From contig CBDEVA010000007.1 in assembly GCA_965243505.1 (NCBI GenBank), positions 206,188 to 270,187 of the forward strand: a stretch of DNA of 64,000 nt. Direction: 5' to 3'. A model generated the notes under the pieces. The model made no database searches and had not been told where the DNA came from. It saw only the letters and a program-made list of their open reading frames with translations. Within the stretch, counting starts at the first letter, position 1; every line of letters starts with the position of its first letter. Position numbers and translations under genes: made by a program. The stretch is from Bacteriovoracaceae bacterium. GTDB taxonomy: Bacteria > Bdellovibrionota > Bacteriovoracia > Bacteriovoracales > Bacteriovoracaceae. Shown in pieces: positions 26,333 through 51,308 of this stretch.

Positions 26333-26337
26333 ATTAA

Positions 26338-29183: not shown

Positions 29184-29191
29184 TTATTTAA

Positions 29192-32326: not shown

Positions 32327-32339
32327 AAAACTATAGCTC

Positions 32340-32897: not shown

Positions 32898-32910
32898 TTT
32901 TTCTCCTTAA

Positions 32911-34508: not shown

Positions 34509-34541
34509 CTTACACCTCTATACTTACTAATAAATTTATAA

Positions 34542-35321
34542 TTATTCTTGAAGATCAATATCTTTTTCAAATTTAGAAATTATTTCATTATCTACTAAAG
34601 AATTTTTACTACCTTCCTCACTACCTTTTCTCTTTACTCCCTTTGCTCCTTCTCTTATAGAATCAGCTAAATATTCTGAAAAAAGAGTTATAGTCTTTAA
34701 AGAGTCATCATTAGCTGGAATTATATAGTCAATACCATCTGGACTACAATTAGTATCAACAACTGCAACTATAGGAATATTTAATGTCTTTGCTTCTTGA
34801 ACTGCAATACTTTCGTTATCAGGATCTATTATAACTATCGCCCCTGGAACCTTTCTCATATCTCTAATACCACCAATATTTCTGTCTAGCTTATTAACTT
34901 CCTTTTCTACTTTTGCCTTTTCCTTCTTTGTTAACATATTAAAGTCACCAGTTTCTTTCATACGATCAACTTTTCTAAGCTTATCAATTGAAAGAGCTAT
35001 GGTTTTAAAATTAGTTAGCATTCCTCCTAACCATCTATGAGTTACATAAAAAGCTCCGCATGATTGTGCCGCCTTTTTCATTGCCTCTGATGCTTGCCTC
35101 TTTGTTCCTACAAAAAGTATTGGCCTATCCTCACTAGATACTTTTTTAAGAAAGTCATATGCTTTTTTTGCCAAATCAACTGTTTGTGCTAAATCGATGA
35201 CATATATTCCATTTTTTTCCCCGTATACATACTTTTTCATCTTAGGATTCCATTTATGAGTCTGATGACCAAAATGTGCCCCTACTTCCAATAGATCTTT
35301 TAGTTGAATTTCTCTAGACAT
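34542..35321 (-). CDS. rpsB: 30S ribosomal protein S2
   Basis: LLEVGAHFGHQTHKWNPKM. Start at the internal ATG (35319-35321), preceded by GAGAGG. Confidence 0.95.
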   Translation of the reverse strand: MSREIQLKDLLEVGAHFGHQTHKWNPKMKKYVYGEKNGIYVIDLAQTVDLAKKAYDFLKKVSSEDRPILFVGTKRQASEAMKKAAQSCGAFYVTHRWLGGMLTNFKTIALSIDKLRKVDRMKETGDFNMLTKKEKAKVEKEVNKLDRNIGGIRDMRKVPGAIVIIDPDNESIAVQEAKTLNIPIVAVVDTNCSPDGIDYIIPANDDSLKTITLFSEYLADSIREGAKGVKRKGSEEGSKNSLVDNEIISKFEKDIDLQE

Positions 35322-35507
35322 TAAAATACCTCTCGTGGTTAATCTAATCACCCTTGTTGCAAGCTACTACTTAGTATGCTTGACCACAAACTAAGAATGA
35401 CTGTTATTTCCCTTAAGTACTTAAGGGGTTTAGACTTGATAACACAGTGGAATAAAAGGAGCAAGCTTATAGATAACTTAAACTTTATATGCTATGCAAA
35501 ATTAGAT

Positions 35508-37712
35508 TTATAATTCTTTGGCATTGAGAACTTTTCTTCTCTTAGATCCTTCAGCAGGGCCTACGATATTTCTTCTCTCTAGCTCTTCGATAAGATTTGC
35601 CGCTCTATTATAACCAATTTTCAAATGCCTCTGTAGCATTGATGCACTAGCTGTTCCATAATCCACAACCAAGCTTACTGCCTTATCATAAAGTTCATCA
35701 TCTGACTGATTACTATTTTCCCAAAAATGAGAAACTTCTCCTGTTCTCTCCTTTTTCTCCTCCATGAACTTAATAGCATCAGGTAAAAATTCTTGGGTAA
35801 TTGTCGATAAATTACGATTTAATGCCTCTACTTCATTCTCCTCAACAAGCGGAGAATGAGCTCTTCTGTTAATTGTTCCATATCTATACAGCATATCGCC
35901 TTTTCCTAGAAGTTTTTCTGCTCCAATATCACTTAAGATAGTTCTAGAATCCGCTCCAGATGTAACCTTAAAGGAAATTCTGGTAGGAAAGTTAGATTTG
36001 ATTAATCCTGTAATAACATCAACCGATGGTCTTTGAGTTGCAATTATCAAATGCATACCTGCGGCCCTAGCTTTAGCTGCCAACCTACAAATATTATTTT
36101 CAACATCTTTTCCACCTCTAGTTAAAATTAAGTCGGCAAATTCATCAATTATTATAATAAAGTAAGGCAGAGAAAAATCCTTAGTTCCTTCGCTATAATA
36201 TGGTCTAATTTTATCTAAAGACTTTTTATCCAATCGACTACACTTTTGATTAAACCCATCTAAACTTCTAACTCCAAATTCTCTAAGTATAGAGTATCTA
36301 CGATCCATTTCTTGACAGGCCCAGCGCAAAGCAATTCCTGCTACACTAGCATCAGTAATAACTGGCAATGCCAAATGTGGTAGATTCTCATATGGCATCA
36401 ACTCTAGTTGTTTGGGGTCAATCAAAATTAATTTCATTTGATTAGGTAGTTTTTTAGCTATCAAAGATATTAAAACAGAGTTTATAAATACTGATTTACC
36501 AGAACCAGTAGTCCCTGCAACTAACATATGGGGCATTGCTGACAAATCAACTACAAAAGAATCTCCAAATACATCTCTACCCATTACAATTGGCAAACGA
36601 TAGGAAGTGTTTTTAAATTCTGTAGAAGATAAAAGCTCTCCTAAACTAATAGTTGTTCTAGGATTTCTAGGTATTTCTATTCCAACTGTAGTTCTTCCAA
36701 TCATAGGATAGACAATACGAATGGCGGTACCTGAAAGAGCAATACTCAATTCATTTTCAGCACTTATAACTTGAGAGATTTTTACTCCACTACCTAGAGC
36801 TAACTCAAAGGTATCAACAACTGGTCCCTTTAATATATTTATAATTTTGCCATCAATCTTAAATTCAGATAATTTTTGCTCTATTATATTTTTTATCTCT
36901 TGAAAATAACTATTCTTTACTTCATTTAGTTTTTCTTTACTTGGCTTATTTAAAGAGCTGTGAACTAAATTATAATACTGCTTATCACTACTAGCTTTTG
37001 AATTTGATTTTCCAATATTTTTAATACTTTTAATCTTCTCTTTTATAGTGGACTCTTTCTTATCTGTAGGTTCTTCTTTATGAGATGAGGCTTTGCCATT
37101 TTCTCCTTTTAGTGCTGACAAAATTTTTAAATGAGAATTTACACTAATTTTATTTTTAACACTAGATACTTTGCTTTTTGTTTTTTGAAATATTGATAAA
37201 GATAATGGATCCTTTACATATCTAAATGAAGCAAAAAATTCTTTAACTACAGTAAAAAAATTACCTCTATATGTTCCAAACAAAAATAAAATCATCGCTA
37301 TAACTCCAAACAGCAGCACAATATTACTAGAAAAATTAGTTTTTATTAAATATAAAATTCCCTCTCCTAGTACATTAGGAGCTAAACAATAAGATAAACA
37401 TAAACAAGCAATAACTAATGCAAAAACATTTAAGGTATCAGTAATAAATAATCTTTTTGAAAAAATAAAAATATAAAATAAGCAAAAAATAGCAAAAGTA
37501 AACAATGTCCATAAACCTGTATAATATTCAACATACATTGCCGCAGAAATAAAATAATAAGAAATAAAACTATAAGATTTATTTGTAGATGTTATTACAA
37601 ATGCATTATCAGGAATCATATCATCTGGATATAAAGACAAAAAAGAAATTATTGTCAAAATAAACAATAAAAATAGCTCTGTTTTTAATACTTTAGATAC
37701 AAAGTTTTGCAT
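35508..37712 (-). CDS. ftsK: DNA translocase FtsK
   Basis: N-terminal membrane helices, Walker A GTTGSGKS, and a C-terminal gamma winged helix SASMLQRHLKIGYNRAANLIEELE. Confidence 0.9.
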   Translation of the reverse strand: MQNFVSKVLKTELFLLFILTIISFLSLYPDDMIPDNAFVITSTNKSYSFISYYFISAAMYVEYYTGLWTLFTFAIFCLFYIFIFSKRLFITDTLNVFALVIACLCLSYCLAPNVLGEGILYLIKTNFSSNIVLLFGVIAMILFLFGTYRGNFFTVVKEFFASFRYVKDPLSLSIFQKTKSKVSSVKNKISVNSHLKILSALKGENGKASSHKEEPTDKKESTIKEKIKSIKNIGKSNSKASSDKQYYNLVHSSLNKPSKEKLNEVKNSYFQEIKNIIEQKLSEFKIDGKIINILKGPVVDTFELALGSGVKISQVISAENELSIALSGTAIRIVYPMIGRTTVGIEIPRNPRTTISLGELLSSTEFKNTSYRLPIVMGRDVFGDSFVVDLSAMPHMLVAGTTGSGKSVFINSVLISLIAKKLPNQMKLILIDPKQLELMPYENLPHLALPVITDASVAGIALRWACQEMDRRYSILREFGVRSLDGFNQKCSRLDKKSLDKIRPYYSEGTKDFSLPYFIIIIDEFADLILTRGGKDVENNICRLAAKARAAGMHLIIATQRPSVDVITGLIKSNFPTRISFKVTSGADSRTILSDIGAEKLLGKGDMLYRYGTINRRAHSPLVEENEVEALNRNLSTITQEFLPDAIKFMEEKKERTGEVSHFWENSNQSDDELYDKAVSLVVDYGTASASMLQRHLKIGYNRAANLIEELERRNIVGPAEGSKRRKVLNAKEL

Positions 37713-37955
37713 ACTTAATTTTAATAATTATATGGTCTTGCGTATATAGATAAAAATAAATTATGCTAATAAATACTATATAAAAGTAATAGGATATTCC
37801 TATAAAAATGATATTGCTGGTTTTGTTTTTTGTAAAAAGAAAAATAGTAACATAAGCTATATTATGCAATGCAGAGCCTGTAATAACAGAAAAGTTCAGT
37901 TATATTACAGAAAGATTAACAAGATGTTAATTAAGTAAATGACAAGGATGTTTAT

Positions 37956-38225
37956 ATGAAGCACTCAAAATCCATTAATAATGCTATAAAACAACAAGTA
38001 TTAAGAAATAATTTAATTCAAACTAAACATTTTAAAAAAAGATTAAAGGAAAGAAATATCACAATGGGTGATACTATTAATGTAATTAATGCTGGTAGAT
38101 TACTAGAAGACAGAAGTGAAGGTGAAAATCGTTATATTATTGAAACTAGAAAATTTAGACTCTCATTGGCAGTAGATAGGGAAACAAAAGAAGTAATTCT
38201 CATAACCATTATAAGAAAAAGCTAG
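37956..38225 (+). CDS. DUF4258-like putative toxin
   Basis: 89 aa, HFKKRLKERNIT...VILITIIRK pattern. It sits directly upstream of the MqsA-like antitoxin gene. Confidence 0.5.
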   Translation: MKHSKSINNAIKQQVLRNNLIQTKHFKKRLKERNITMGDTINVINAGRLLEDRSEGENRYIIETRKFRLSLAVDRETKEVILITIIRKS

Positions 38226-38251
38226 GTTATCAATAAAATACCTGAGCTAGT

Positions 38252-38285
38252 TTGACTGTAATCTGGAATTGACTTAAAGTCAATT
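38252..38285 (+). promoter_or_regulatory. candidate promoter with overlapping palindromic operator upstream of the antitoxin gene
   Basis: TTGACT (38252-38257), a 17-nt spacer, then TAAAGT (38275-38280). The 19-nt palindrome AATTGAC-TTAAA-GTCAATT (38267-38285) overlaps the -10. Confidence 0.3.
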
Positions 38286-38327
38286 TTAGTACATATTGCT
38301 TTTTTAACAACACAAAGAAGGACTGAA

Positions 38328-38804
38328 ATGAAGTGTTATAGCTGTAATATTAAACTACATAAAACTATAGAAAAATTTTATAGATACTTAGAATCTGGAC
38401 TTTCAAACATTTATCTTAAAAATATAGAAATTAAAAAATGCCATAAATGTGGAGAAGAACTAACTTCTATACCCAATATAGAGGGATTACATAATCTTAT
38501 AGCTACAACTATTGCTCATAAAAAATATAAGCTTCTTCCAGAAGAAATAAGATTTTTAAGAACTCATTTAGGATTTTCTTCAAAAGATTTCGCACAGTTT
38601 ATAGGAGTAACTCCAGAGACAGTTACTCGTTGGGAAAAAGGCTCTGTTAATATGAAAGATCCTATTGAAAAGCTATTAAGGGTGTTAATTATTGCAAAAG
38701 CTGGTCCTTTTAGAAATTATGAAGACTTAAATATGTTTTCTAATAAAAAAATTAAACAAAAAAAAGTATTTACTTTTAAATCTAGCTGGAAAGAAGCTGC
38801 TTAA
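38328..38804 (+). CDS. MqsA-family antitoxin (zinc ribbon + XRE HTH)
   Basis: CYSC...CHKCGE zinc ribbon, followed by LRTHLGFSSKDFAQFIGVTPETVTRWEKG HTH. Confidence 0.65.
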   Translation: MKCYSCNIKLHKTIEKFYRYLESGLSNIYLKNIEIKKCHKCGEELTSIPNIEGLHNLIATTIAHKKYKLLPEEIRFLRTHLGFSSKDFAQFIGVTPETVTRWEKGSVNMKDPIEKLLRVLIIAKAGPFRNYEDLNMFSNKKIKQKKVFTFKSSWKEAA

Positions 38805-38866
38805 TTATAGCTTATTAATATGTATCATAATAAAATTTGAAATTCTTCCGCATCCTACTATATATT

Positions 38867-39847
38867 CTATGCAACATCAAAATCATCTAAATCCAAAGAT
38901 ATTATTCTTTGTGAAAATACTTTGTGAAATGCCTCTGCCCTATCATGAAACCACTTAAATAATTCATTCCAAGATAACTTATTTTCAAAATCACCATCAT
39001 TATATTGAATAATACGACTTGCAATTCTATGTGGTAACTCTTCCCATTCAAGTTTTGTCCCTAATTCTGATTCAATAGAGTCTTTTTCTTTTGAAAGTAA
39101 GCTAAAAGCTAATTTAGATTCTGATACTCCTATGTACAGTCCAACACCTACGCACTTTGTTCTAGAGTTTAAAGTTAATGATAGATGAAATCCAGATCTA
39201 CCAACTGAAATATCATACCAATGTTGAGGTCTGGCCTTTCTTAAACTTAAAAATGTATTCTTAGATTTCATAAATTCAATTAAACCTAGCCAAAATTCTC
39301 GCTGAAGCAGTTTAGTATCAGTATATTCTCTTTCACTGAAGTTAGCTGTATTTATGTTTCTTGCCCAATCATTTGGTTGAGATACTAAATTAAACTTTGG
39401 AGCTGGAAAAGAATCGCCAATTTGCCATAATTCCATTTCTAAACCAAAAAAAGAAACTCCATCATTAGTCATTTCATTTAACCAGTCCAATGTTTTTTTA
39501 TGTTCTTCACAAATATTTTTTGCAATCCAAACAACAGCAACGGCATCATATCCAGAAGCATATGTTAGTAATTGTCCTAAGTGGTTATGGTTTGTTTTTT
39601 CTAGCTGATTTTCTATAACAACAAACTTATTAGAATCAGTATCTTTTGCAAGTATATCAACTTTGAAGCTGCCAACTGACCTTTCCCTACCAATTAATTC
39701 AAGATCAATGCGTATTGTCTCACTTAGAAGCTTTAAATTTTCTTCATTTGCTAACCAAGGTGTAAAATCTCTAGCTTCATCTTCCCAGTATTCACGAAGT
39801 TCAACAGGTGCTAAATTTCCAAGCTTTTTTACTTTTCCATTAAACAT
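38867..39847 (-). CDS. DUF4268-like protein with N-terminal PD-(D/E)XK (NucS-like) nuclease fold
   Basis: REYWEDEARDFTPWL, FKVDILAKD...VVIENQLEKTNHNHLGQLLTY. Start at the ATG at 39847, preceded by GGAGA. Confidence 0.5.
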   Translation of the reverse strand: MFNGKVKKLGNLAPVELREYWEDEARDFTPWLANEENLKLLSETIRIDLELIGRERSVGSFKVDILAKDTDSNKFVVIENQLEKTNHNHLGQLLTYASGYDAVAVVWIAKNICEEHKKTLDWLNEMTNDGVSFFGLEMELWQIGDSFPAPKFNLVSQPNDWARNINTANFSEREYTDTKLLQREFWLGLIEFMKSKNTFLSLRKARPQHWYDISVGRSGFHLSLTLNSRTKCVGVGLYIGVSESKLAFSLLSKEKDSIESELGTKLEWEELPHRIASRIIQYNDGDFENKLSWNELFKWFHDRAEAFHKVFSQRIISLDLDDFDVA

Positions 39848-40090
39848 ACTTATCTCCACTAGTAATAATACAATATCGGAATACTCAGACATTTCTTAAA
39901 TGGTATAATAACCAATAATTTCAAATAATTATTTTTTTTAAACACCTAGAACCGCCTATTTCTTATACTAGCATTTTCTTATGTAATAAATATCCAAAAT
40001 TATATAGTTATCCCTATTTAATTTCAGTTAGTTATATTGACATTAGTACAATTTTGCCAGTTAACTGGTAAAATTGTACCATATATAAAT

Positions 40091-41242
40091 ATGATTAAAA
40101 GAGAAGCGTTTAATATATTAAAAACACTAGAAAAAGGATACCCTGTAATATCCATAACTGGCCCTAGGCAGTCTGGGAAAACAACTTTAGCTAAATTAGC
40201 ATTTTCAAACAAGGAGTATGTATCTTTGGAAACTCCGACAAATCTAGATTTTGCCATAAATGATCCCACCTCATTTTTAAAAAAATATCAAAAAGGAGCA
40301 ATTATAGATGAGGCTCAAAAAGCACCTCTTTTGTTCTCATACCTACAAGAGATAGTAGATAAAAGTAAAATTATGGGACAATTTATATTAACAGGTTCAC
40401 AACAATTTGGACTTTTATCAAAAATTACTCAATCACTTGCAGGTAGAGTAGGAAATCTTGAACTATTGCCTTTATCTATTTTAGAGCTAGATACACTCTG
40501 TTCTGATATTTATCAGCAAATATTTACAGGATTTTATCCATCTATTTACGATAGAGAGCTTAACCCTACAATATGGTATGAAGACTATGTAAAAACATAC
40601 TTAGAAAGAGATGTAAAAGAATTAATTAATATTAAAGACTTAAGAACATTTAGAAATTTTTTAAAATTATGCGCTGTAAGAAATGGTCAAATCTTAAATA
40701 TAACAGAGCTTTGTAATGATGCTAATATCAATAGAAAGACTGCTAATTCATGGCTTTCTGTATTAGAACAAAGTTACATTATTCATTTTTTACATCCTTA
40801 CACAAAAAGCTTTTCAAAAAGAATAGTGAAATCTCCCAAACTATATTTTTATGATTCTGGTCTAGTTTCCTATTTATTAGGAATTAGAAGCAGTAAAGAC
40901 ATCTTCTTAAGTCCTTTTAAAGGAGCATTATTTGAATCCATGATTATATCTGAAATGAAAAAATTCAATATGAATCATAGAAAAGCAATAGATTTTTATT
41001 TCTGGAGAGATAATAAAGGTATAGAAATTGATGTAATTTTTGAAACTGCTCAAAAAATTAATTCTATTGAAATAAAATCAAGTTCAACAATACAAAATGA
41101 TTTTTTTAAAAACTTAAAAAGTTATCAAAGTTATGTGGGTAAAGAACATGGAAATTCATTTTTAATTTATGGTGGGGATCAAATTCAAGATAGAAAAATA
41201 GCTAAAGCCATACCCTGGATAAAGATAAGTGAGATTTTTTAA
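40091..41242 (+). CDS. AAA-superfamily ATPase (DUF4143-type)
   Basis: Walker A GPRQSGKTTL, Walker B-like IIDEAQ, C-terminal DUF4143-like region. The ATG at 40091 is preferred over the TTG at 40037. Confidence 0.7.
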   Translation: MIKREAFNILKTLEKGYPVISITGPRQSGKTTLAKLAFSNKEYVSLETPTNLDFAINDPTSFLKKYQKGAIIDEAQKAPLLFSYLQEIVDKSKIMGQFILTGSQQFGLLSKITQSLAGRVGNLELLPLSILELDTLCSDIYQQIFTGFYPSIYDRELNPTIWYEDYVKTYLERDVKELINIKDLRTFRNFLKLCAVRNGQILNITELCNDANINRKTANSWLSVLEQSYIIHFLHPYTKSFSKRIVKSPKLYFYDSGLVSYLLGIRSSKDIFLSPFKGALFESMIISEMKKFNMNHRKAIDFYFWRDNKGIEIDVIFETAQKINSIEIKSSSTIQNDFFKNLKSYQSYVGKEHGNSFLIYGGDQIQDRKIAKAIPWIKISEIF

Positions 41243-41420
41243 TACTATCTAACTTCATAACTACATAGCTATGCATTAAATATAAAATAATACTACTAAA
41301 ATAGATTACTATAATAAAAAACTTTAATCTTATGACTTAAATTTCCGAAAATATAGTATCTGCCTATCTGGGCCTCTAAAGATTTAGGTGGTATTATTAT
41401 AATAATTGGAGTAAATAATC

Positions 41421-41624
41421 ATGTGGGATAAATTTATTAAATATATGAAAGATCAGCTTAATAATAAAGAAAAAGACAGTAGTAAAATCAGTATTATTGA
41501 TTTTATTTTTCGAGGAAAAGGGACCGTCAGAGAACCTTTCATAGACCCTAAAGAAGCGTGGAAAAACAATAAAGATATCAGAGAAAAAATTATTAAAAGC
41601 ATTCAGAAGAAACAAGAATCTTAA
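41421..41624 (+). CDS. small hydrophilic protein, unknown
   Basis: 67-aa ORF ending 9 nt upstream of the next gene. No motif recognised. Confidence 0.3.
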   Translation: MWDKFIKYMKDQLNNKEKDSSKISIIDFIFRGKGTVREPFIDPKEAWKNNKDIREKIIKSIQKKQES

Positions 41625-41633
41625 ATATAGCAC

Positions 41634-42218
41634 ATGGAACTTACTATAAATTCATTGTCATGGGCAGTTCCAGGCTATTTAACTATTTGGTTTTACCATA
41701 ATATAACCAAACCAAAACAAAATACTCGAACTATAAGTAATTGGGAATATTTAATAAGCGTTGTATTTATAGCAATAATTACTAATTGGCTCATTAATAT
41801 TCTTAATATAAACCATATAAATAACTACAAAATACTATATCAATCTATTGCAGGAATATTACTTACATTTCTTTATTCTACACTACTATTTTTACTTCCT
41901 AAAAAACATGAAGATAGCTTTATTAACTTCTGTATTGAAAACGAGGGTAAAGCTATATTTTTAACTTTAAGCAATAATAAAGTATATATTGGAATATTAG
42001 TAGAATTCCCTAAAAATATTCAAAATAAAGATCAAACTATTATGATAATGCCTATTGCGAGTGGATATAGAGGGGAAAAAATAGATGGAGATGTAACATG
42101 GAAGACTAGATATTTACAGAATGATGATAATAAATTTATTCAATTAATTATTCCAAAAAGAGAAATTATTACTATATCTTTATGGATTGATGAAGCTGAA
42201 TTTCAATATATTAGTTAA
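41634..42218 (+). CDS. membrane protein with cytoplasmic C-terminal domain, unknown (DUF6338-like impression)
   Basis: Hydrophobic N-terminal half, about 3 helices (LSWAVPGYLTIWFY...). Beta-rich C-terminal half (AIFLTLSNNKVYIGILVEFP). Confidence 0.4.
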   Translation: MELTINSLSWAVPGYLTIWFYHNITKPKQNTRTISNWEYLISVVFIAIITNWLINILNINHINNYKILYQSIAGILLTFLYSTLLFLLPKKHEDSFINFCIENEGKAIFLTLSNNKVYIGILVEFPKNIQNKDQTIMIMPIASGYRGEKIDGDVTWKTRYLQNDDNKFIQLIIPKREIITISLWIDEAEFQYIS

Positions 42219-42277
42219 ACAACACAAAATAATATTCAAATATTTCACCCATAACTTTTGTAAACTTGGAAAAACAA

Positions 42278-42297
42278 GAGGCTACAAATGTAGCCTC
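42278..42297 (+). terminator. stem-loop, possible intrinsic terminator
   Basis: GAGGCTAC-AAAT-GTAGCCTC, a perfect 8-bp stem 60 nt after the stop at 42218. The T-tract is weak. Confidence 0.4.
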
Positions 42298-42540
42298 GTA
42301 ATCTATCTTAGCAATAATAGATGAGATTATTTACATACTAACTTAAATATTAATTAAACAAAGTAATAAAATAATTTATAATATACAATTTACCCTATGC
42401 ACTCAAAATTACACATATATAAATATATTATGCACTGCAATTTATAAACAATTAATAATTAAAGCAAATCAATATGATATTTTCTAAATATCATGCTAAA
42501 TTACTTTTCTAATAATAAAATCATATTTAGGAGGTAATTA

Positions 42541-43188
42541 ATGAAAATCATCAAAAAACTACTAATAACTAGTTTATTAATTTCTATATTTTCTATTTCA
42601 TCAGCAAATGCCATGGAAAGATACTTAGCTACTTTTACAGCAACATGGAGCAAGATAACTCATCCATATATGTTTCCAGCAAATCCACATTTTTCTCCAC
42701 TTGTAGCAGCAACTCATAATAAAAACTTTATGCTGTTTTATCAGGGATCAAAAGCATCAAGAGGTTTAAAAATTGTCGCTGAAACAGGAAATCCAAGAAC
42801 ACTGGTAAGAGAATTAAATAGTAATCAAAATGTAATGCATGTATCTACAGCAATGGGACCATTTAACTCTCCTGGAATGAGCATGGTTTCACTTTTAGCT
42901 AGTGAAGGAGCAGAATATGTTTCAATGGTTACAATGATCGCTCCTAGTCCTGACTGGATTGCTGGAGTTAGCAGATACAAATTAAAAGACGCAAATAATA
43001 ATTGGATTGATAAAAAAATGATTCCTGTATATGCCATTGATGCTGGAACAGATAGCGGAAGAACTTATACATCTGAAGATCTTCCAACAGTTCCACAAGA
43101 GAGAGTTAAGTTAATAACTCAAAAACCATTTGTAAATGACAATGGTAAAGTAATTCCCGTTGGTTTTATAATAATTAAAAGAATGTAA
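42541..43188 (+). CDS. secreted spondin_N-like domain protein
   Basis: Signal peptide LLITSLLISIFSISSANA. TATWSKITHP...PHFSPLVAATHN...MIAPSPDWIAGVS...DAGTDSG pattern. Confidence 0.55.
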   Translation: MKIIKKLLITSLLISIFSISSANAMERYLATFTATWSKITHPYMFPANPHFSPLVAATHNKNFMLFYQGSKASRGLKIVAETGNPRTLVRELNSNQNVMHVSTAMGPFNSPGMSMVSLLASEGAEYVSMVTMIAPSPDWIAGVSRYKLKDANNNWIDKKMIPVYAIDAGTDSGRTYTSEDLPTVPQERVKLITQKPFVNDNGKVIPVGFIIIKRM

Positions 43189-43266
43189 TTAAATTATGCC
43201 TCTCTTGTGATAAATGAGGGAGGTGTGTTTACATTATATTTGGAATAAAACTATAATTATTAATTT

Positions 43267-44274
43267 TTAATAATTCTTGATAATAAGCTCTGTTAATGCT
43301 CCTCTTTTACTTGAATTAGAATTAATAACTCGCCTAGCATGGATTCTCTCAATATTATATTTAAAATAAAGCTTATCAAAAAATGGGTCATTAATATAAT
43401 TTGAAGGGTCAGAATTACTCATCATTTGCATGATGTTTTCTTTATCAAGATGTTCAAATAATTTTGATAGCCTAATTTGTTCGTCATCATCAAATTGCTC
43501 TTTTGAATAGCTCGTAAAATTAGAACTCTTACTAATTGGCCTATAAGGAGGATCATAATAAATAAAAGTATCTTTTGTTATGCAATGTCTTGCCAAAGAG
43601 AAATCTCCAAGAGCAATTGTAGTATTTTGTAGTAGCTTACTAGCTACTTTTATTTTATCTTCAAATAATATTGTAGGATTAGCATATCTACCATGGGGAA
43701 CATTAAAGTGTCCTTTTGAATTAACCCTAAATAAACCGTTAAAACAAGTTCTATTTAAAAATACTGTTTGTGCAGCTCTTTTAGAAATAACATAATTTCT
43801 CTTTATTTCTTGTAGTACATCTGACAGCGATTGATTATATTGCTCTCTAATTTTATAAAATAAATCTTTTCTTTTACTATCATTAAGAGATAAATATTTA
43901 GATTCTATCTTTGAAAGCTCTTTTATAAGAGCATTAGGGTTTGATTTAATAGTATTATATAAAATAATTAATTCGTGATTTTTATCAAAAAGATAAGAAG
44001 ATTTTATTTTGTATTGATTAGCTATATCAAAAAAAACTGCTCCTCCACCTATAAATGGTTCAATATAAGTTTTAATTTTATTGTTTTTTAACTCTTTAGG
44101 ATAATTTTCCCTTAGCACAGGCAGTAGTTGGCCTTTACCTCCAGCCCATTTTAGTATTGGAATACTTTTTTTCACATTAGACTTTTTGTTGGATGAAATA
44201 GTTTCTTTTAAACCTATTATTGAATAGCTATTGGAGCGATGTCTTTTATCGGGTAATAATGATTTTGTAGTCAT
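43267..44274 (-). CDS. dam: Dam-family (D12 class) N6-adenine DNA methyltransferase
   Basis: KWAGGK, motif I EPFIGGGAVFF, and motif IV YYDPPY, in alpha-class order. Confidence 0.85.
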   Translation of the reverse strand: MTTKSLLPDKRHRSNSYSIIGLKETISSNKKSNVKKSIPILKWAGGKGQLLPVLRENYPKELKNNKIKTYIEPFIGGGAVFFDIANQYKIKSSYLFDKNHELIILYNTIKSNPNALIKELSKIESKYLSLNDSKRKDLFYKIREQYNQSLSDVLQEIKRNYVISKRAAQTVFLNRTCFNGLFRVNSKGHFNVPHGRYANPTILFEDKIKVASKLLQNTTIALGDFSLARHCITKDTFIYYDPPYRPISKSSNFTSYSKEQFDDDEQIRLSKLFEHLDKENIMQMMSNSDPSNYINDPFFDKLYFKYNIERIHARRVINSNSSKRGALTELIIKNY

Positions 44275-44292
44275 AATATTTACTCCTTTCTT

Positions 44293-44910
44293 TTAGTTAA
44301 GCGGAGGTAAAACAGTCTCTAAAAACTTTGTTCTTGCATAAAAAGCACGACTAGTACTTCCATGACCAGTACCTTTAGTTCTAGGCTGAATATACCTACC
44401 CATCTTTCCTGTCAATGAATCAAAACCTTCTTTTTCAATTTTGACACGAACTAATTCATAATCTTCTTTTACTATATTATATGCTTCACCCTCTAATTTT
44501 ACTTCATTAATAGAATGAATATATGTTGGATCTAAAAAAGTTGCTCCAACTGTTCTGGTAACAATTATAATTCTTTTTAGTTTTACCAGAAGATGACTAT
44601 CTTCAAATGGGGTTTTTAATACATTTACTGGATCTATCATAGTTACTGCCATTGTTTCTTTATAAGTCAAAGAACCATCTTTTCGCCATTTCAACGGTAT
44701 GAGTTTTAACTCCCAAGAGCCAAGGTTTGGTTCTCTTGATGAATTAAGAGGTAATCCAAGCTCTCTTTCTAAAATATGTCCTGCCCATCCCTTATTAGCC
44801 TTTCCAGTTTTAGAGTTTACTATAGTTACATCTAGATGATTTTTACCTAATTGATGCAAATCACTTCCAACAAGAGAAGATAGCTTTTCTATAGCTTTAA
44901 CTCTTTCCAT
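44293..44910 (-). CDS. MutH/Sau3AI-family GATC endonuclease-like protein
   Basis: NKGWAGHILERELGL, E-x6-E-L-K (REPNLGSWELK), RYIQPRTKG and RAFYARTKF align by eye with E. coli MutH (KGWIGVLLEIWLG, DFAALGVELK, YLQIRPKA, RGFYLKKNF). Confidence 0.7.
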   Translation of the reverse strand: MERVKAIEKLSSLVGSDLHQLGKNHLDVTIVNSKTGKANKGWAGHILERELGLPLNSSREPNLGSWELKLIPLKWRKDGSLTYKETMAVTMIDPVNVLKTPFEDSHLLVKLKRIIIVTRTVGATFLDPTYIHSINEVKLEGEAYNIVKEDYELVRVKIEKEGFDSLTGKMGRYIQPRTKGTGHGSTSRAFYARTKFLETVLPPLN

Positions 44911-45168
44911 ATTAATAAGAGACTACTAACTATTTAGTTTGGAGTAAAATAGGTATTTCAAATATGAAATAAAGCTGTTGATAACCCACTAAGTCATAGG
45001 ATAATTAAAACAAAATTAAGATGTTACTAATGTAGATTCTACCTATCTTTCAATAAGATATTTAGAAAAGACTCTTTGCATTGTCTATAGATATAAATTA
45101 TTCCTGAAAGAAATATTCTATTTATTGAAACAAAGTTTTATACTACTTATTTCATTAAAGAAAATACA

Positions 45169-46044
45169 ATGATAAACAATAAAAAAACCTTTATTAATAA
45201 ATATAGAATTGATAAGTTTCTATCTATGCTATCAGAAAATATAAACTATGATGAATATCGAAAAAATTTAGAAGAAAAATTAAAAAGTATAATTTTAAAA
45301 CAAAAAAATCTAGAATTAGAAAGATTTTTTGAAGATACTTTTTATTTTTTTTCATATAGTGTTGACTCTCTATTAAAAAATGTTGATGAAGATCAAAAAC
45401 AGATACTAACATGGATATCTTCTGCTATTATTCAAATTCACGATATATTAAGAAGCACTAAAATAAATCAAGAGCTTCTTCTCCTCACATCATCTGTCTC
45501 AAACTATAGGATATCAATTGAAATTGAATTTCAGCTAAAATATATTTTTAAAAATGAAAAATCTCAAGAACTAGCAGAGAGATTTTATTTATTCGGTATG
45601 TATGAACAACTTAGACATCATAATAAAAAGCTAAAAGAAAATCCTAACTATAAATGCCCTAATACTTTCAAATCAGACGAAACAGCTAAAATATTATACA
45701 AAAAATGTCCTGATTGGTTTGATAATTCTAAAATCATTAAATTAAAAAATATTAAAAATTTTTTGAACAAACCAATAGAAAAAATAGCAAGATTTATAGG
45801 AGAAGATGAGTATAAAGAATATTTAACTTACAAAAGTTTATCTAAAATTATTCATGCGTCATCAATAAGCCAAAACATTTATAAAGATAATTTAGTTAAT
45901 AGCTCAGAAAACATCACTATGTTTAATAAGAATACAGTATACCATTGTTTAAGTATAATTAAAATTATCTACAGCCAATTTTCATCTAAAAACTTTGATG
46001 AGGAAAGATATTGCAACCTAATAAGTAGAATTATAAAAGTCTAA
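45169..46044 (+). CDS. all-helical protein, unknown function
   Basis: 291-aa ORF with no recognised catalytic motif. Convergent with the retron RT. Confidence 0.35.
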   Translation: MINNKKTFINKYRIDKFLSMLSENINYDEYRKNLEEKLKSIILKQKNLELERFFEDTFYFFSYSVDSLLKNVDEDQKQILTWISSAIIQIHDILRSTKINQELLLLTSSVSNYRISIEIEFQLKYIFKNEKSQELAERFYLFGMYEQLRHHNKKLKENPNYKCPNTFKSDETAKILYKKCPDWFDNSKIIKLKNIKNFLNKPIEKIARFIGEDEYKEYLTYKSLSKIIHASSISQNIYKDNLVNSSENITMFNKNTVYHCLSIIKIIYSQFSSKNFDEERYCNLISRIIKV

Positions 46045-46076
46045 ACAAACCACTATTAAAATTATTAATAACATTA

Positions 46077-47765
46077 CTAATTGTATATTCGTAGTTTGTA
46101 ATCGTCTATAACTTCCTGTATTATATAGATAAGATACTTAAAGTTATCAAAGTTGATCTTTTCCCAATTAGGCTTAATAACTTTTTCTGCAAATACTTGT
46201 TTACCATAATATTTGTTACTATCAAATTTGCTGTCCGGATTAAAGGTTTTTCCTTCTAAAACAGTTTTTTTTGTTTTTTCATCAAAATAGGTTTCAATTG
46301 TAGTACTATTTTCATTTGATAATTTTGGAAGCAACACAAAATATACATTGTCAAATAGATATAAAAATTTTTCTTTCGTTTTATTATTATTAATATTTTT
46401 ACTGAACATTTTTTCTCCTTCTTTATCGTTATCTAACAACATAATAACTGGAAACTTTCTATCTTTATCGGATGTTTTTATTTTAACTTCTTTATATGTA
46501 TTAATTATGTGATTAAATCCTGAAACTCCTCCCGGATGTAATACTGCTAACATTGATGAAGACATATTAAAAAAATTTAATTTCCAATAAAAGTCATCGT
46601 ATTCTCTTCTTTCAACTATTTTAGGAAAATTATTAGCTAAGTTTTTTAATGCACTTTTTATATGAATAACATCTGTCTTTCCCTCACATATTATCAAAGG
46701 CCTTTCTATTCTATGAAATTTTTCAAAACATATAAATTTTTTAATTACCTTACATATACCTTTAGAATATTTTTTCCCAGAACTTCTTTTTACATGGTAT
46801 ATGTAACTCAACATACCTCTAAGCTGTTCTATATATCCATATATAGGTGTTATCTTTGACCTTTGAGAGATTTCACAAAAATCTCTCTTGTTACCAATAA
46901 TGAAATATCCTTTCTTAAGCAAAGAGTCACTCATTGCTCTAACCTTTCTATAGTATGCACTAGGAATATTTACTTTTTTGTTTACAACTAAACCTGTAAC
47001 TTTTTGCCGATTTACACGATACTGCATTGATACTTTTCTAGGGTTTATTTCAAATCCAGAAAACTCAATAATCTTAAATAAGTCTAGACTAGGTTTCCAA
47101 GTATGATGTTCTCTAGTTGCAATTTCCTTAGGAAATTCTTTTTTATTTGTTGAAAAAGTTATATCATCTGCATATCTAGAGTATGAACAACCTGTCTTTT
47201 TAGCCAATCGCAAAAGATGAATATCTAATATATGTCCTATAAGATTTGAAATAATTGGTGAACTTGGAGAACCTTGTGGTAATTCATTATTATGACATAC
47301 AATTTGAGCAATAATAGTCGCAACTCTATCATTAAGACTAAAATTTCTATCGTTTATAAAGTAACCTCTAACTCTTCCAAAGTTAATTGATGGGAAAAAA
47401 TCTTTTAAATCTATATTAAAAACATATTGTTTTTTAAGATGCATTTGAGCATTTGTAATTATTGAATACTTTTTTCTAAATCCATGTGAAAGAGTGTTTC
47501 TAAAAAGCTCTTCAAAACAATCTTCCATTAGCTCCGATACTCTAGACTGCAAATGTTTTAGTTTTTCTTGTGGAGCTTTTATTATCCTAAATTGACCATT
47601 AGATTTTAAAATATTAAATTCAGTATATTTTTCATTTTCAGGAATTTTATAGAGGATATAAGACATACCACTAGGAGTATATCCAAGTAAACTAGCAAGA
47701 TCGCCAAGGCTTCTAGATAATCTAAGTTTTTGAATTTTATCCTGAACAATTGTAGTAGATTTCAT
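46077..47765 (-). CDS. retron-type reverse transcriptase fused to a C-terminal TOPRIM domain
   Basis: LPQGSPSSP, YADD (aa 198-201), retron-typical VTG (aa 256-258). TOPRIM Glu in IICEGKTD (aa 361) and DxD in LLDNDKEG (aa 445-447). Confidence 0.85.
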   Translation of the reverse strand: MKSTTIVQDKIQKLRLSRSLGDLASLLGYTPSGMSYILYKIPENEKYTEFNILKSNGQFRIIKAPQEKLKHLQSRVSELMEDCFEELFRNTLSHGFRKKYSIITNAQMHLKKQYVFNIDLKDFFPSINFGRVRGYFINDRNFSLNDRVATIIAQIVCHNNELPQGSPSSPIISNLIGHILDIHLLRLAKKTGCSYSRYADDITFSTNKKEFPKEIATREHHTWKPSLDLFKIIEFSGFEINPRKVSMQYRVNRQKVTGLVVNKKVNIPSAYYRKVRAMSDSLLKKGYFIIGNKRDFCEISQRSKITPIYGYIEQLRGMLSYIYHVKRSSGKKYSKGICKVIKKFICFEKFHRIERPLIICEGKTDVIHIKSALKNLANNFPKIVERREYDDFYWKLNFFNMSSSMLAVLHPGGVSGFNHIINTYKEVKIKTSDKDRKFPVIMLLDNDKEGEKMFSKNINNNKTKEKFLYLFDNVYFVLLPKLSNENSTTIETYFDEKTKKTVLEGKTFNPDSKFDSNKYYGKQVFAEKVIKPNWEKINFDNFKYLIYIIQEVIDDYKLRIYN

Positions 47766-47778
47766 GTTAATTATAAAA

Positions 47779-47789
47779 GCTTGCAGATA
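47779..47789 (-). repeat. a2 inverted repeat (TATCTGCAAGC on minus strand)
   Basis: Exact reverse complement of 47906-47916. Confidence 0.7.
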
Positions 47790-47905
47790 CTCCTATGCGA
47801 AAAGCCTTACCATTGAGACGGTAATAAAAGATTCAAAGCGTATAAACCAGCACAAAACTCGGTTTAACATTGGTTTCCCATGTTGAGAAGCTCAACAATA
47901 AAATC

Positions 47906-47916
47906 TATCTGCAAGC
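47906..47916 (-). repeat. a1 inverted repeat (GCTTGCAGATA on minus strand)
   Basis: Exact reverse complement of 47779-47789. Confidence 0.7.
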
Positions 47917-48127
47917 AAGTTCTTACTATCACTACTATTATATAATTGCAATTATAAGTAACATAGAATGGCTATATGCATATAACATAAATTATGTCTA
48001 ATATAATCAAGGATAAAATTATTTGTAATATATAAATATGTCCATTAAATAAAAAAATGTTGCTAGCAAATTCAAAATAAAATTTTTAATTATATAGAAT
48101 TTAAATTTACGACTAAATCAATAATAA

Positions 48128-48718
48128 TTATTTTACAACTTCAGGAAAAACTCCCAATATAAGCACTGGTATATCTATATTAGAAGTCCCTCTTTTTTCT
48201 AAATCCCAAACAAATTGCTCAAAGTACGATACGCCTGAAGACATATTATCAGCCATTCCCTTAACAGGAACGACTTCTATTCCTGCACTAATAACGCCAA
48301 GATTGCTAAAAATAGTCATTTTTGCACATACATTGTAAACCATAAAAGCATACTTACCAAATTGAATTTCTACTCCTAATTTGTTTTTTACAAAATCCAT
48401 ATCTCTAAAAGCCCCACTGTTTAAAGGTTTAGGAGAATATTCATTTGTGTAGTAATTAGTTGGATAATCACATTTTTCTCTATGAGATACCCATCCTTTT
48501 TTAAAAAAGCCATTTTTGAATTTATCATTTAAGGAAGCAGGACTATACAGAAGCTTTCCTTTCATAGTCTTTTCCTTACTGACTTTATCAAAGCATTTTG
48601 ATGCATCTACATAATTGATAACATTATAAACTTCTGCTAGTTGGTCAGGAAAGTTTTTAGTTATATAATCCTTTCCATTATTTAAACTATATTCAGCGGC
48701 AATAATCATTAAATCCAT
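48128..48718 (-). CDS. BglII/BstYI-family type II restriction endonuclease-like protein
   Basis: DMDFVKNKLGVEIQFGKYAF and MSSGVSYFEQ...IDIPVLILGV resemble, from memory, BglII DIDFGKRDTLVEVQFSNYPF and SSLYYEQ...FDVPIRLVGL. Overlaps the MTase gene by 10 nt. Confidence 0.6.
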   Translation of the reverse strand: MDLMIIAAEYSLNNGKDYITKNFPDQLAEVYNVINYVDASKCFDKVSKEKTMKGKLLYSPASLNDKFKNGFFKKGWVSHREKCDYPTNYYTNEYSPKPLNSGAFRDMDFVKNKLGVEIQFGKYAFMVYNVCAKMTIFSNLGVISAGIEVVPVKGMADNMSSGVSYFEQFVWDLEKRGTSNIDIPVLILGVFPEVVK

Positions 48719-49647
48719 TCCTTAGGAATCTGAGAAACCTTTTCCTTGCCACTAGGAACATGAATTGGTTTTCCTAATGGACGAATTTTTAAGTTTCCAG
48801 AACAAAAATTTTTAATACGCTCTCTAGCAATCTTTGAATAATTAGAATCCTTATCCACAGAAATTCCTATTCTATCGTGTTTAACAGAAGCAATTAATGT
48901 TGATCCAACTCCTCCAAAAGGATCAAGAACCCAGTCATTTTTATCAGTAAAAGCCAAAACACAACGCTCTATAAGCTCTATAGGAAATTGACATGGGTGA
49001 ATTGTTTTTTCTGGGTGGTTAGACTTTACATTAGGAATATCAATAACTCCTAAATCAAATTCATTTTGCATTAACTCCCAATAATCTGAGGGATTTTTTC
49101 CTTTAGGATTTCCACTTAAAAGTCCTTTTTTGTTTCCTTTAAAATGTCTTTTTCCAGGATATTTTGATGGAACTCTAATATTATCAAGATTGAATGTATA
49201 ATCATCTGATTTAGTAAACCATAATAAAGTTTCATATCTTCCTGATAAACGCTTGCTAGCATGAAGACCATGGTTAAAATGCCAAATTATTCTGTTTCGT
49301 AATTTCAAATTTAACTTTTTAAATATTGGATAGAAAAAGATATCCAAAGGGAAAACCTCTCCTTTATCAACAAAGTTTCCAACTTGCCAACAAAAACTTC
49401 CTTTGGGATGTAATAGACTTGCTAGTTTAGAAATAATTTCTTCTTGCCAACATATATAGGTATCTAAATCCTGTTTTTTTTCATAAACTTTTCCAATATT
49501 ATAAGGAGGTGATGAAATAATTAACTTAAAAAAATTCTTTGGAAGTTCTTTTGAAAACTTTAAAATATCTTTCGTAATTATAGCACTATTTTTTTTATTA
49601 AACTCACTACAAACAGTTAACTTCTTTTCAAAAATATTTAATTGCAT
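48709..49647 (-). CDS. beta-class N4-cytosine/N6-adenine DNA methyltransferase (SPPY type)
   Basis: Motif IV IISSPPY near the N-terminus and motif I VLDPFGGVGST near the C-terminus. SPPY favours N4-cytosine. Confidence 0.85.
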   Translation of the reverse strand: MQLNIFEKKLTVCSEFNKKNSAIITKDILKFSKELPKNFFKLIISSPPYNIGKVYEKKQDLDTYICWQEEIISKLASLLHPKGSFCWQVGNFVDKGEVFPLDIFFYPIFKKLNLKLRNRIIWHFNHGLHASKRLSGRYETLLWFTKSDDYTFNLDNIRVPSKYPGKRHFKGNKKGLLSGNPKGKNPSDYWELMQNEFDLGVIDIPNVKSNHPEKTIHPCQFPIELIERCVLAFTDKNDWVLDPFGGVGSTLIASVKHDRIGISVDKDSNYSKIARERIKNFCSGNLKIRPLGKPIHVPSGKEKVSQIPKEWI

Positions 49648-49994
49648 CTTATCCCTCTTTATTTTTTAATCATATTAATTACAATTTTTACTTAATTTAT
49701 ATATTAATCAGTATTTTGAGCAGCACCCTTTCCACATAATCCCAAGAAAAAATGATATTGCAAATATGAAATTCAAAAATGATGTAATACTAAAAAATAA
49801 ATGACTTATGCCAAATTAAAAGGTTTATTTTGCGGTGTCCAAAAAGTTAATTTACACAACAGTTGACTTCTACAATAAAACTACTTAACTAGTAATCTAA
49901 AGATATGCTGTCTAATTAACTGGAAGTTATTGTCTTAGTAATTAAGATAATAACCAGTAGCTTAAGATAAATAAATTAGGAAATAGGGTAAAAA

Positions 49995-50978
49995 ATGAAA
50001 ATAAGTAAAATACAAAAGATACAAAAGTTTAAATTTATAAGTATGATTAGTAAAAGGCTTATTGAAATGGGTCGTATTGAAGCAGAAACTTTCATTCAAG
50101 TTTATACTAATTTTGAAAAAACTGAAGAAAATTATAATTACTTAGACAACTATAATTATGGAGAACAAATTATAGAGCTTGTCAGAACATTGAGTGAACA
50201 AACTATTATTGAAATGTATACCGACTTATTTCCAGAAGAATCAAAAAAAGATATCCAAGAATATCCTAATGTTGAGGAGTTAGATTTGGGAAGAAAAGAT
50301 TTAGTATTATTTTTAAGTCATTCTCATAAAGATGTAGATATGGTTATGAAAATAAAGGAGCAATTAGAAAAAACATCTTGGATTTACTGTTTTGTAGCTC
50401 ATAAAGATATTGAACCAACAAAAAAGTGGCTAGAGGAAATTAACAAATACTTGAGAGGTTGTCATGCATTCGTTCCGTTTCTTTCAGAAAACTTTAAAAA
50501 GTCTAATTGGTGTGAACAAGAAGTAGGCTTTGCTGAAAGTAGAAATATTCCTGTAATTCCAATAAAAATAAATGTTAATCCTTATGGTTTTATACAAGAG
50601 TATCAAGCTTTGTCATTAGAGAAAGGTGATTCTTATGTAGATTTAGCTGAAAAAATTGAAAGTGTTATTTTGAACAAAGATTCTATACTATCAAGTATAG
50701 CACAAGAAAAAATGAAGCAAGGTTTGGATAATTTAAAAAGAGGATTTCTCTATTCTACTAACAAAACGGTTGCAAAAACTATATTAGGACAACTTCTTTC
50801 TTTTAAAAAAGGACAAATCCCAGAAAGCTACATCGCTGAAATTAATGAAAGATGGAGGCAAAACCACAAAATCAAAGAAATAGAAAATATAAACAGCTTT
50901 ATGGAAAAATTCTCTGGAAAATATATCCTTAAAAAAGATAAAATCAATAGATTAATAGAAAACAAACCCATGCAATAA
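49995..50978 (+). CDS. TIR-domain protein
   Basis: aa ~103-195: LVLFLSHSHKDVDMVMKIKEQL...CFVAHKDIEP...AFVPFLSENFKKSNWCEQEVGFA, a TIR_2-like pattern with a conserved Glu. Helical N- and C-terminal extensions are unassigned. Confidence 0.7.
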   Translation: MKISKIQKIQKFKFISMISKRLIEMGRIEAETFIQVYTNFEKTEENYNYLDNYNYGEQIIELVRTLSEQTIIEMYTDLFPEESKKDIQEYPNVEELDLGRKDLVLFLSHSHKDVDMVMKIKEQLEKTSWIYCFVAHKDIEPTKKWLEEINKYLRGCHAFVPFLSENFKKSNWCEQEVGFAESRNIPVIPIKINVNPYGFIQEYQALSLEKGDSYVDLAEKIESVILNKDSILSSIAQEKMKQGLDNLKRGFLYSTNKTVAKTILGQLLSFKKGQIPESYIAEINERWRQNHKIKEIENINSFMEKFSGKYILKKDKINRLIENKPMQ

Positions 50979-51060
50979 AATGGTTATAATCTTACAAAAA
51001 GTAATGAATAGTATTAGATTATCCTTTAGATGTTGTTAGCCTTAGTTGTTGTATGTAATG

Positions 51061-51135
51061 GTGGAGATGACAAGATTCGAACTTGCGACCCCCTGCGTGC
51101 AAAGCAGGTGCTCTCCCAACTGAGCTACACCCCCA
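51061..51135 (-). tRNA. tRNA-Ala (anticodon UGC)
   Basis: Reverse complement GGGGGTGTAGCTCAGTGGGAGAGCACCTGCTTTGCACGCAGGGGGTCGCAAGTTCGAATCTTGTCATCTCCACCA folds as a cloverleaf. Anticodon loop TTTGCAC, G3:U70 pair, encoded CCA. Confidence 0.92.
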
Positions 51136-51308
51136 TTATTTTCCATGACGTTTTTTATCTTTAATATATATAAAAGTTTTTAAAACAAAAAGACAAACAA
51201 GTAGTACTCCTACTAACGACCATGTAGGCAATGTTAGATGATCTTCTTTATAAGTTCTTTGAACTTTTGAATCAACAAGTGATGACTTTTTTGCTTCCAT
51301 AAAAACCT

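Follow-up and report, generated by a model that had tools for sequence, protein, structure and literature searches.

A compact anti-phage defence island between ftsK and tRNA-Ala in an AT-rich Bacteriovoracaceae chromosome, probably assembled from independent modules

When a dense block of immunity genes sits between two sets of core genes beside a transfer RNA (tRNA) gene, is it the remnant of one mobile element or a site where separate defence modules have accumulated? The question arises for a locus of an uncultured Bacteriovoracaceae bacterium of predatory type (GenBank assembly GCA_965243505.1, contig CBDEVA010000007.1), of which we analysed a stretch of 64,000 nucleotides (positions 206,188 to 270,187, forward strand). 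This whole stretch is called the window hereafter, and all coordinates refer to it. It is very AT-rich, with a GC content of about 27%. A preliminary description of the window had pointed to about 13 kb between ftsK and tRNA-Ala as a defence island with no visible mobility gene, and had offered two origins for it: an old, immobilised integrative element or a defence hotspot built by accretion. Our results support the first part of that proposal and favour accretion. We assign a probability of about 0.72 to the reading that positions 37713-51058 are a chromosomal anti-phage defence island at a variable locus, built from independent modules and not one recognisable mobile element.

The island measures 13.3 kb and lies between two conserved housekeeping gene blocks. 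Counting open reading frames (ORFs) of at least 60 aa within 37713-51058, it holds 14 genes, eight on the plus strand and six on the minus strand, with intergenic gaps of at most 362 bp; the mixed orientation thus agrees with the preliminary description, and its count of about 15 genes is lowered by one. The left border is ftsK (35508-37712, minus strand; Pfam FtsK_alpha, FtsK_SpoIIIE and FtsK_gamma), the last of 12 genes (truA to rpsB-ftsK, 25556-37712) that are colinear in three Bacteriovoracia relatives (loci L005, L007 and L009), and this colinearity ends exactly at the ftsK start. The right border is tRNA-Ala(TGC) (51059-51134, minus strand), found by both ARAGORN and Rfam. Its 3' end faces the island as had been noted, at 51059 and not at 51061. 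Beyond it, nine cox-cluster genes run from 58122 down to 51136, the last ORF toward the tRNA encoding 54 aa (51136-51300). These genes are colinear in three further loci (L015, L016 and L017), in all of which tRNA-Ala(TGC) also follows the cox cluster and similarity stops past the tRNA. Core genes therefore flank the island on both sides, as first described.

Eight of the 14 island genes match PADLOC defence models, and with a toxin-antitoxin (TA) pair the number in known or candidate defence modules rises to ten. For the flank we used Pfam on ten large genes between 1 and 25 kb, while the island genes were scored with PADLOC. Eight of those ten carry housekeeping-type domains, among them an AddAB-like helicase-nuclease, HisRS, a class I tRNA synthetase and trigger factor, and two have no Pfam match. 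By tblastn, no island gene was found in the relatives' loci L005-L010 or L015-L017. The enrichment in defence genes is real and both borders are sharp; local enrichment together with absence from the colinear loci of relatives is what operationally defines a defence island, and both were found here. Pfam and PADLOC also reproduced every label given earlier (TA, PD-(D/E)XK nuclease, AAA ATPase, two restriction-modification pairs, retron and TIR).

One of these modules is a retron. Positions 46077-47765 on the minus strand encode a type I-C reverse transcriptase (RT) fused to a Toprim nuclease, Eco2/Ec67-like, which matches the PADLOC model RT-Toprim_I-C over its full length (E 3e-198, residues 6-559) and the Retron Ec67 protein of the PDB at E 5.8e-103 (residues 9-560 against 5-584). 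The RT part has the Pfam domain RVT_1 and, in translation, the motifs YADD and VTG, and Pfam places the C-terminal Toprim domain at residues 357-458 (E 3.6e-6; 27.5 bits against a cutoff of 23.1). From sequence and fold, we read a retron non-coding RNA (ncRNA; msr-msd) of about 138 nt at 47779-47916 on the same strand, ending 13 nt ahead of the RT start codon. Its a2 segment (GCTTGCAGATA, 47916-47906) and a1 segment (TATCTGCAAGC, 47789-47779) form a perfect 11-bp inverted repeat enclosing about 115 nt of hairpins, and a putative branching G stands right after a2, at 47905. The same ncRNA layout occurs upstream of a 36%-identical RT at L019, the only related locus from a metagenome scan. In a consensus fold of just these two sequences, compensatory changes in both partners preserve 4 of the 11 pairs of the a2/a1 stem and 3 of the 7 in the first msr hairpin. 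To judge by its sequence, the retron is complete, with an RT-Toprim protein and a canonical msr-msd layout.

The island retron resembles Retron Eco2 (Ec67) in its single RT-Toprim fusion, which aligns over the full length, and in its ncRNA, which is placed directly upstream and whose a2, followed by a G, pairs with a1 over 11 bp. It differs in protein length (562 aa here, 596 aa in Eco2), in ncRNA sequence and in its host, which is Bacteriovoracia-like with 27% GC. In Eco2, the type I-C prototype, the Toprim nucleases are enclosed in a cage of multicopy single-stranded DNA (msDNA) until phage DenB breaks this down, whereupon the released nuclease cleaves tRNAs (PMC12916289). By analogy, the island RT would make an msDNA that cages its fused Toprim nuclease, and decay of that msDNA triggered by phage would free the nuclease, leading to tRNA cleavage and a stop of translation.

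The two restriction-modification (R-M) pairs would both be centred on GATC. The methylase of one is a Dam-type (D12 class) N6-adenine DNA methyltransferase (43267-44274, minus strand; Pfam MethyltransfD12 E 6e-57) with a DPPY motif, YYDPPY in the translation. Its best PADLOC model is oMTase, the 'orphan' methylase model (E 2e-90), and MTase_II matches at E 1e-86. Lying 18 bp upstream, a single-domain nuclease of the MutH/Sau3AI family (44293-44910, minus strand; Pfam MutH E 1.5e-11) is its putative GATC restriction partner. This nuclease scores 64.5 bits against NCBIfam Sau3AI (E 8e-18, cutoff 300) and 42.8 bits against NCBIfam MutH (E 3e-11, equivalog cutoff 243), and in the PDB both Sau3AI and MutH match it about equally, with E near 1e-5. 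The HMMER alignment shows that it keeps E67-L-K69 and has N62 at the position of the catalytic Asp; an ungapped register places E60 at the spacing of MutH D70. Since a Glu or Asn replaces the catalytic Asp and the scores fall below both family cutoffs, its activity is uncertain. GATC itself is mildly depleted in the window, with 119 sites observed and 163 expected (observed/expected 0.73). Depletion is far stronger for two other 4-nt palindromes of the window: CGCG, which does not occur at all (0 observed, 3.8 expected), and ACGT (7 observed, 24.8 expected). This pattern may be the mark of restriction, past or present, by systems encoded outside the window.

Regarding the second pair, a BstYI-like type II restriction endonuclease (48128-48718, minus strand) matches BstYI of the PDB (1sdo) over its full length at E 6.5e-32, as well as Pfam Endonuc-BglII (E 1.7e-19) and PADLOC REase_II (E 2.5e-34), and its predicted site, taken from BstYI, is RGATCY. 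The gene overlaps by 10 bp with that of an N4/N6 DNA methyltransferase (48709-49647, minus strand; Pfam N6_N4_Mtase E 1.3e-48, PADLOC MTase_II E 2e-72), so the two form one operon. This arrangement of a full-length homologous nuclease and an overlapping methylase gene is shared with the BstYI R-M system; the difference is that a second GATC-centred pair, Dam with the MutH/Sau3AI-like nuclease, lies 3 kb away in the island. We also observed a 28-nt motif, AGwAAAAtnGnTATTnCAAATATGAAAT, upstream of both R-M operons (44943-44970 and 49745-49772). The two copies are 82% identical and stand at different distances from the start codon; they could be a shared regulatory site or a chance likeness in AT-rich DNA.

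Two further genes correspond to PADLOC candidate systems, and they fill the interval 38867-41242, which the preliminary description had counted among its unassigned genes. One encodes a nuclease of the PDC-S11 or 'Madara' type (38867-39892, minus strand), matched over its full length at E 6e-122. Its N-terminal domain is a NucS-like PD-(D/E)XK nuclease (NucS residues 60-115, E 1.7e-4) and its C-terminal domain is DUF4268 (Pfam E 5e-31). DUF4268 is also present in the modification-dependent nucleases MdgA and MdgB, and the order of a NucS-like PD-(D/E)XK domain followed by DUF4268 is the likeness that the island protein bears to Madara, MdgA and MdgB. By that analogy, it is a putative modification-dependent restriction enzyme. 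In E. coli ECOR34, PDC-S11 restricts hypermodified T-even phages, and it has been renamed Madara (bioRxiv 10.64898/2026.09.05.749240); a BREX system is adjacent to Madara in that strain, and none stands beside the PDC-S11 gene of the island. The other gene is a PDC-S01 ATPase-nuclease candidate (40037-41242, plus strand; PADLOC E 1.8e-99), an AAA_14 ATPase (Pfam E 1.5e-25) fused to DUF4143 (Pfam E 4.7e-47). Its true start is probably an ATG at about 40091, because the PADLOC alignments open at residue 19. PDC-S01 is very common and unvalidated as a defence system (PMC12988326).

At the ftsK side, a small DUF4258 protein (37956-38225, plus strand; Pfam E 3.9e-7, 30.7 bits against a cutoff of 25) is a putative type II TA toxin, and it is followed by an MqsA-family antitoxin with a CxxC zinc finger and a helix-turn-helix (38328-38804, plus strand). 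The antitoxin scores 83.1 bits against NCBIfam TIGR03830 (cutoff 61.8; E 1.3e-23) and also matches Pfam MqsA_antitoxin and HTH_3. The pair resembles MqsRA in that its antitoxin passes the MqsA-family cutoff and the toxin gene comes first, as in mqsRA; the difference is that the toxin is a DUF4258 protein and not MqsR.

At the tRNA side lies a gene for a stand-alone TIR-domain protein (49995-50978, plus strand; Pfam TIR_2 E 5e-18), which weakly matches PADLOC ThsB (E 1.9e-10) and positions 260-422 of the NCBIfam model Retron_TIR (E 6e-11, far below its cutoff). The TIR domain spans approximately residues 104-212 and contains, as read in the translation, the motif SNWCEQE, which may carry the catalytic Glu. 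Plasmid TIR proteins match it over this domain only, and its N- and C-terminal regions have no known match. The lone protein is probably an NADase. It shares with Thoeris a ThsB-like TIR domain with SNWCEQE. It differs in its terminal regions and in that the island holds no ThsA-type effector, and for the lack of this partner we do not regard it as Thoeris; no SIR2, Macro or SLOG domain was found by Pfam or PADLOC in the other 13 island proteins.

The two remaining stretches listed earlier as unassigned, 41421-42218 and 45169-46044, are indeed uncharacterised. The former is a two-gene cassette. Its first gene (41421-41624, plus strand) codes for a 67-aa protein, rich in Lys, that contains the motif GTVREPFIDPKEA and has no family match in Pfam, PADLOC, NCBIfam or PHROG. 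The second (41634-42218, plus strand) encodes a 194-aa protein in which three transmembrane helices at the N-terminus precede an Sm/LSm-like beta-barrel at the C-terminus, with R146 and G144 conserved in the Sm-like domain. It matches no family of Pfam, PADLOC or NCBIfam, and an exhaustive search gave 95 cluster representatives at E <=1e-3. Its AlphaFold2 (AF2) model, made from alignment A1, has a predicted local distance difference test score (pLDDT) of 85.5, and in a Foldseek search of the PDB the barrel matches Sm/LSm proteins at E 4e-4 with a TM score of about 0.7 on the target. Residues 90-194 match the uncharacterised family phrog_3630 at E 3.3e-13, and among viral structures the closest is that of a siphovirus protein of 197 aa, also uncharacterised, which aligns over the full length. 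A link to MscS was tried and rejected: hhalign of A1 against the MscS-family protein of L016 gave a probability of 0.3%, which leaves only a loose architectural analogy.

In all four other loci that could be read (L011, L012, L013 and L018), the gene homologous to that of the 194-aa protein is immediately preceded by a small ORF of 60-66 aa. With the window this makes five of five loci, so we regard the two genes as a conserved cassette. The 67-aa protein is 30-41% identical to the small ORFs of L011, L012 and L013, a central REP-type motif is common to two of these three aligned ORFs, and tblastn with the 67-aa protein recovers L011 and L012 only. In outline, the cassette couples a small Lys-rich protein, which has a conserved motif of the REPFIDPKEA type, to a membrane protein of three helices and a terminal Sm-like barrel. 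As a speculation from analogy, the Sm-like domains could form a ring like that of Sm proteins or of the MscS beta domain, and so a membrane pore, and the small partner could restrain this putative pore, which would make the pair an abortive-infection effector. At L018 (a Bdellovibrionales metagenome-assembled genome, 4760-8657), the cassette lies about 2 kb from an AAA_14/DUF4143 gene of the PDC-S01 type and two ankyrin-repeat genes. A PDC-S01-type gene is thus near the cassette in two loci, the window and L018.

The stretch 45169-46044 (plus strand, convergent with the retron RT gene) encodes an orphan protein of 291 aa, predicted to be all-helical. A word-seeded search among 5.8 billion proteins gave no homologue; Pfam (to E = 10), NCBIfam and PHROG gave no match, the best PDB hit was non-significant (E 1.9), and tblastn found nothing in phages or plasmids. 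In PADLOC there is only a weak match to CARF3 (E 0.0049), and the AF2 single-sequence model, with a pLDDT of 39.8, is too poor for a fold search. The ORF is far too long for DNA this AT-rich to have arisen by chance, and its codon usage is host-like. By association only, the cassette and the orphan are further defence candidates. The case for the cassette is drawn from the conserved pair, its placement in the island, the nearby PDC-S01-type gene and its prophage-type relatives (phrog_3630). That the cassette is an undescribed anti-phage module and, jointly, the orphan a second lineage-specific defence gene strikes us as distinctly unlikely, at about one chance in seven or a little better.

Taken together, the island modules would act independently and in layers, by cutting unmodified DNA, by cutting modified DNA and by abortive infection. 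Are they nonetheless the cargo of a single element? No recombinase, integrase or transposase domain was found in any island ORF with Pfam, PADLOC, NCBIfam or PHROG, and since all intergenic gaps are of 362 bp or less, no decayed integrase is hidden between the genes. The preliminary description had also proposed looking for direct repeats of the tRNA 3' end and for a deviation in composition from the flanks, and neither search gave a signal. By BLAST, no stretch elsewhere in the window matches the tRNA over more than 10 nt (E 3.2, chance level), and a repeat search of the window yielded no significant direct repeats and no repeat family at the borders or the tRNA. For composition, 13 island genes were scored against the rest of the window: GC is 0.283 versus 0.276 (p = 0.47), GC at third codon positions (GC3) is 0.173 versus 0.178 (p = 0.86), and codon usage gives p = 0.16. 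The island would be old enough, or its donors similar enough, to be compositionally native.

We then turn to the corresponding locus in relatives, where ribosomal RNA (rRNA) genes come into play on both sides. At L016, a complete 16S rRNA gene lies 384 nt past tRNA-Ala, in the order cox, tRNA-Ala, 16S, tRNA-Ile (11242-13445; Rfam). In the same contig, of 2.48 Mb, protein-coding genes follow the 16S and tRNA-Ile genes (13445-20681) with no 23S within 7 kb, so the 16S and 23S rRNA genes may be unlinked there. On the ftsK side, L007 has a 5S rRNA gene and a terminator (19-202) at its contig end, 3.6 kb upstream of ftsK, and a similar terminator opens the contigs of L005 (1-60) and L009 (1-45), 116 bp and 8 kb upstream of ftsK, respectively. 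Orientation is consistent across these rRNA, terminator and ftsK arrangements. Both blocks that flank the island therefore abut rRNA genes in relatives, and the island appears to sit where relatives seem to have rRNA. At the window locus itself, an Rfam E-value scan and BLAST with the 16S and 5S genes of a relative detected no rRNA gene or remnant.

The space between the terminator and ftsK in L005, L007 and L009 amounts to 0, 3.6 and 8 kb, and its genes are mutually unrelated. The 8-kb cargo of L009 includes, at 288-6098, genes for three proteins: one of 648 aa that resembles ZorB/MotB (PADLOC E 1e-31), one of 409 aa with a weak likeness to ZorA and one of 869 aa without a match. The corresponding locus may here carry a Zorya-like system. 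For the genes beside tRNA-Ala or ftsK in relatives, Pfam was uninformative except for pentapeptide repeats and a weak OmpA match. We infer from these arrangements that the region upstream of ftsK is a variable locus, at the level of the family only because a close relative of the exact junction is lacking: the FtsK proteins of L005, L007 and L009 are about 50% identical to that of the window, a scan of genome contigs returned only matches of 36-42% identity from other phyla, and an exact look-up of FtsK returned no match.

How do these results bear on the origin of the island? An element that once inserted at the tRNA-Ala 3' end through a tyrosine integrase, and later lost the integrase and its att sites, would explain why that 3' end faces the island, why the TA pair stands at the far end and why the cargo is typical of mobile defence islands; TA pairs are common on such islands. 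Against it stand the lack of any integrase or fragment, with no gap above 362 bp to hold one, of any tRNA repeat longer than 10 nt in the window and of any compositional deviation. The geometry of the tRNA, which the preliminary description had taken as classic for tRNA-targeted integration, requires no integration event and would instead mirror a conserved linkage of cox cluster and tRNA-Ala: in three relatives the tRNA belongs invariably to the cox block, and in one of the three a 16S rRNA gene comes next. We consider such a decayed element unlikely. Accretion fits better because the modules are independent, in mixed orientation and separated by their own intergenic regions, and because the space on the ftsK side varies in cargo among relatives; of the two origins first offered, it is the hotspot built by accretion that we retain. 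In a relative, the cox/tRNA-Ala block and the ftsK block were never found on one contig, which weakens the case for the island as described here, and for this reason accretion over decay is a preference that we infer. Several other points weigh in the same direction. No collection searched held a relative closer than the FtsK identity of about 50%, which leaves no empty site or alternative allele for comparison. Composition gives no sign of a horizontal origin. The MutH-like nuclease may lack activity or serve a purpose other than restriction, and PDC-S01, the TIR protein, the cassette and the orphan are defence candidates only. Finally, the remaining island gene encodes a secreted Spondin_N-domain protein (42541-43188, plus strand; Pfam Spond_N E 6e-44) with an N-terminal signal-like sequence and no PADLOC match. 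It is not defence-like, being either a passenger or a remnant of the original locus, and it is where the earlier statement that most genes are of defence type, which holds for ten of the 14, finds its exception.

That Spondin_N gene in mid-island, the core-like composition, the MutH-like protein that matches MutH as well as Sau3AI, and the 'orphan' methylase as best PADLOC model of Dam could all be taken to mean that the region is ordinary chromosome, with Dam and the MutH-like protein acting in mismatch repair, the ATPase and nucleases being repair factors, and the defence labels over-interpreted. We hold this to be very improbable, given that no housekeeping role suits the retron with its ncRNA, the BstYI-like R-M system, PDC-S11, the TIR protein or the TA pair, and that the colinear loci of six relatives contain no island gene. 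For the Dam/MutH-like pair in particular, we rejected mismatch repair as the main interpretation: the two genes lie next to each other, relatives lack the pair at their colinear loci, and a MutH score so far below its equivalog cutoff also disfavours it. Least probable, by a narrow margin, is that 13 kb of foreign sequence was misjoined between two real contigs at an rRNA break. Metagenomic assemblies break at rRNA genes, the contigs of relatives end at or near rRNA genes on both sides of the locus, and the window has no rRNA. Such an artefact would require two independent wrong joins within a contig that spans 274,793 bp, no rRNA fragment is present at either junction, and the GC, GC3 and codon usage of the 13 scored genes match those of an unusually AT-rich host (~27% GC).

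The anti-phage island, probably built by accretion, is an ordinary one and compares well with chromosomal defence islands and hotspots that carry no mobility genes. It shares with them dense modules in mixed orientation between core genes, beside a tRNA/rRNA locus, a content of R-M, retron, TIR, Type IV-like and candidate nucleases and TA genes, and absence from the locus of relatives; it differs in that its composition is fully native and in that the interval of relatives appears to hold rRNA genes. Such islands are familiar, and nearly all the modules found here have been named before. The value of the locus is mainly descriptive. It provides an immune locus, compact and mapped in full, from a very AT-rich, deep-branching lineage of Bacteriovoracia-like bacteria, a predatory group whose phage defence has been little studied. 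Its position where relatives appear to have rRNA, together with the differing cargo upstream of ftsK, hints at a variable locus across the family. What novelty is left comes from the conserved cassette, from the orphan gene and from the fact that immune genes appear to have taken the place of a variable locus associated with rRNA. The cassette is a cheap candidate for phage challenge.

Outside the island, we made some minor observations in the flanking blocks. The AddAB-like pair (3724-8994) consists of two proteins. One, of 744 aa, is a UvrD helicase bearing a PD-(D/E)XK domain; the other, of 776 aa, is a PD-(D/E)XK protein whose gene has the lowest GC in the window, 0.206. Also on the left, among what are otherwise housekeeping genes, two genes with products of 638 and 340 aa (12045-14970) and a low GC of 0.22-0.24 have no Pfam match at E <=1e-5. 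On the right, the small cox-associated ORF directly adjoins the tRNA in the window (51134-51136), unlike at L015 and L017, where a peptidyl-prolyl isomerase gene lies between this ORF and tRNA-Ala (11165-11761 and 11897-12436, respectively).

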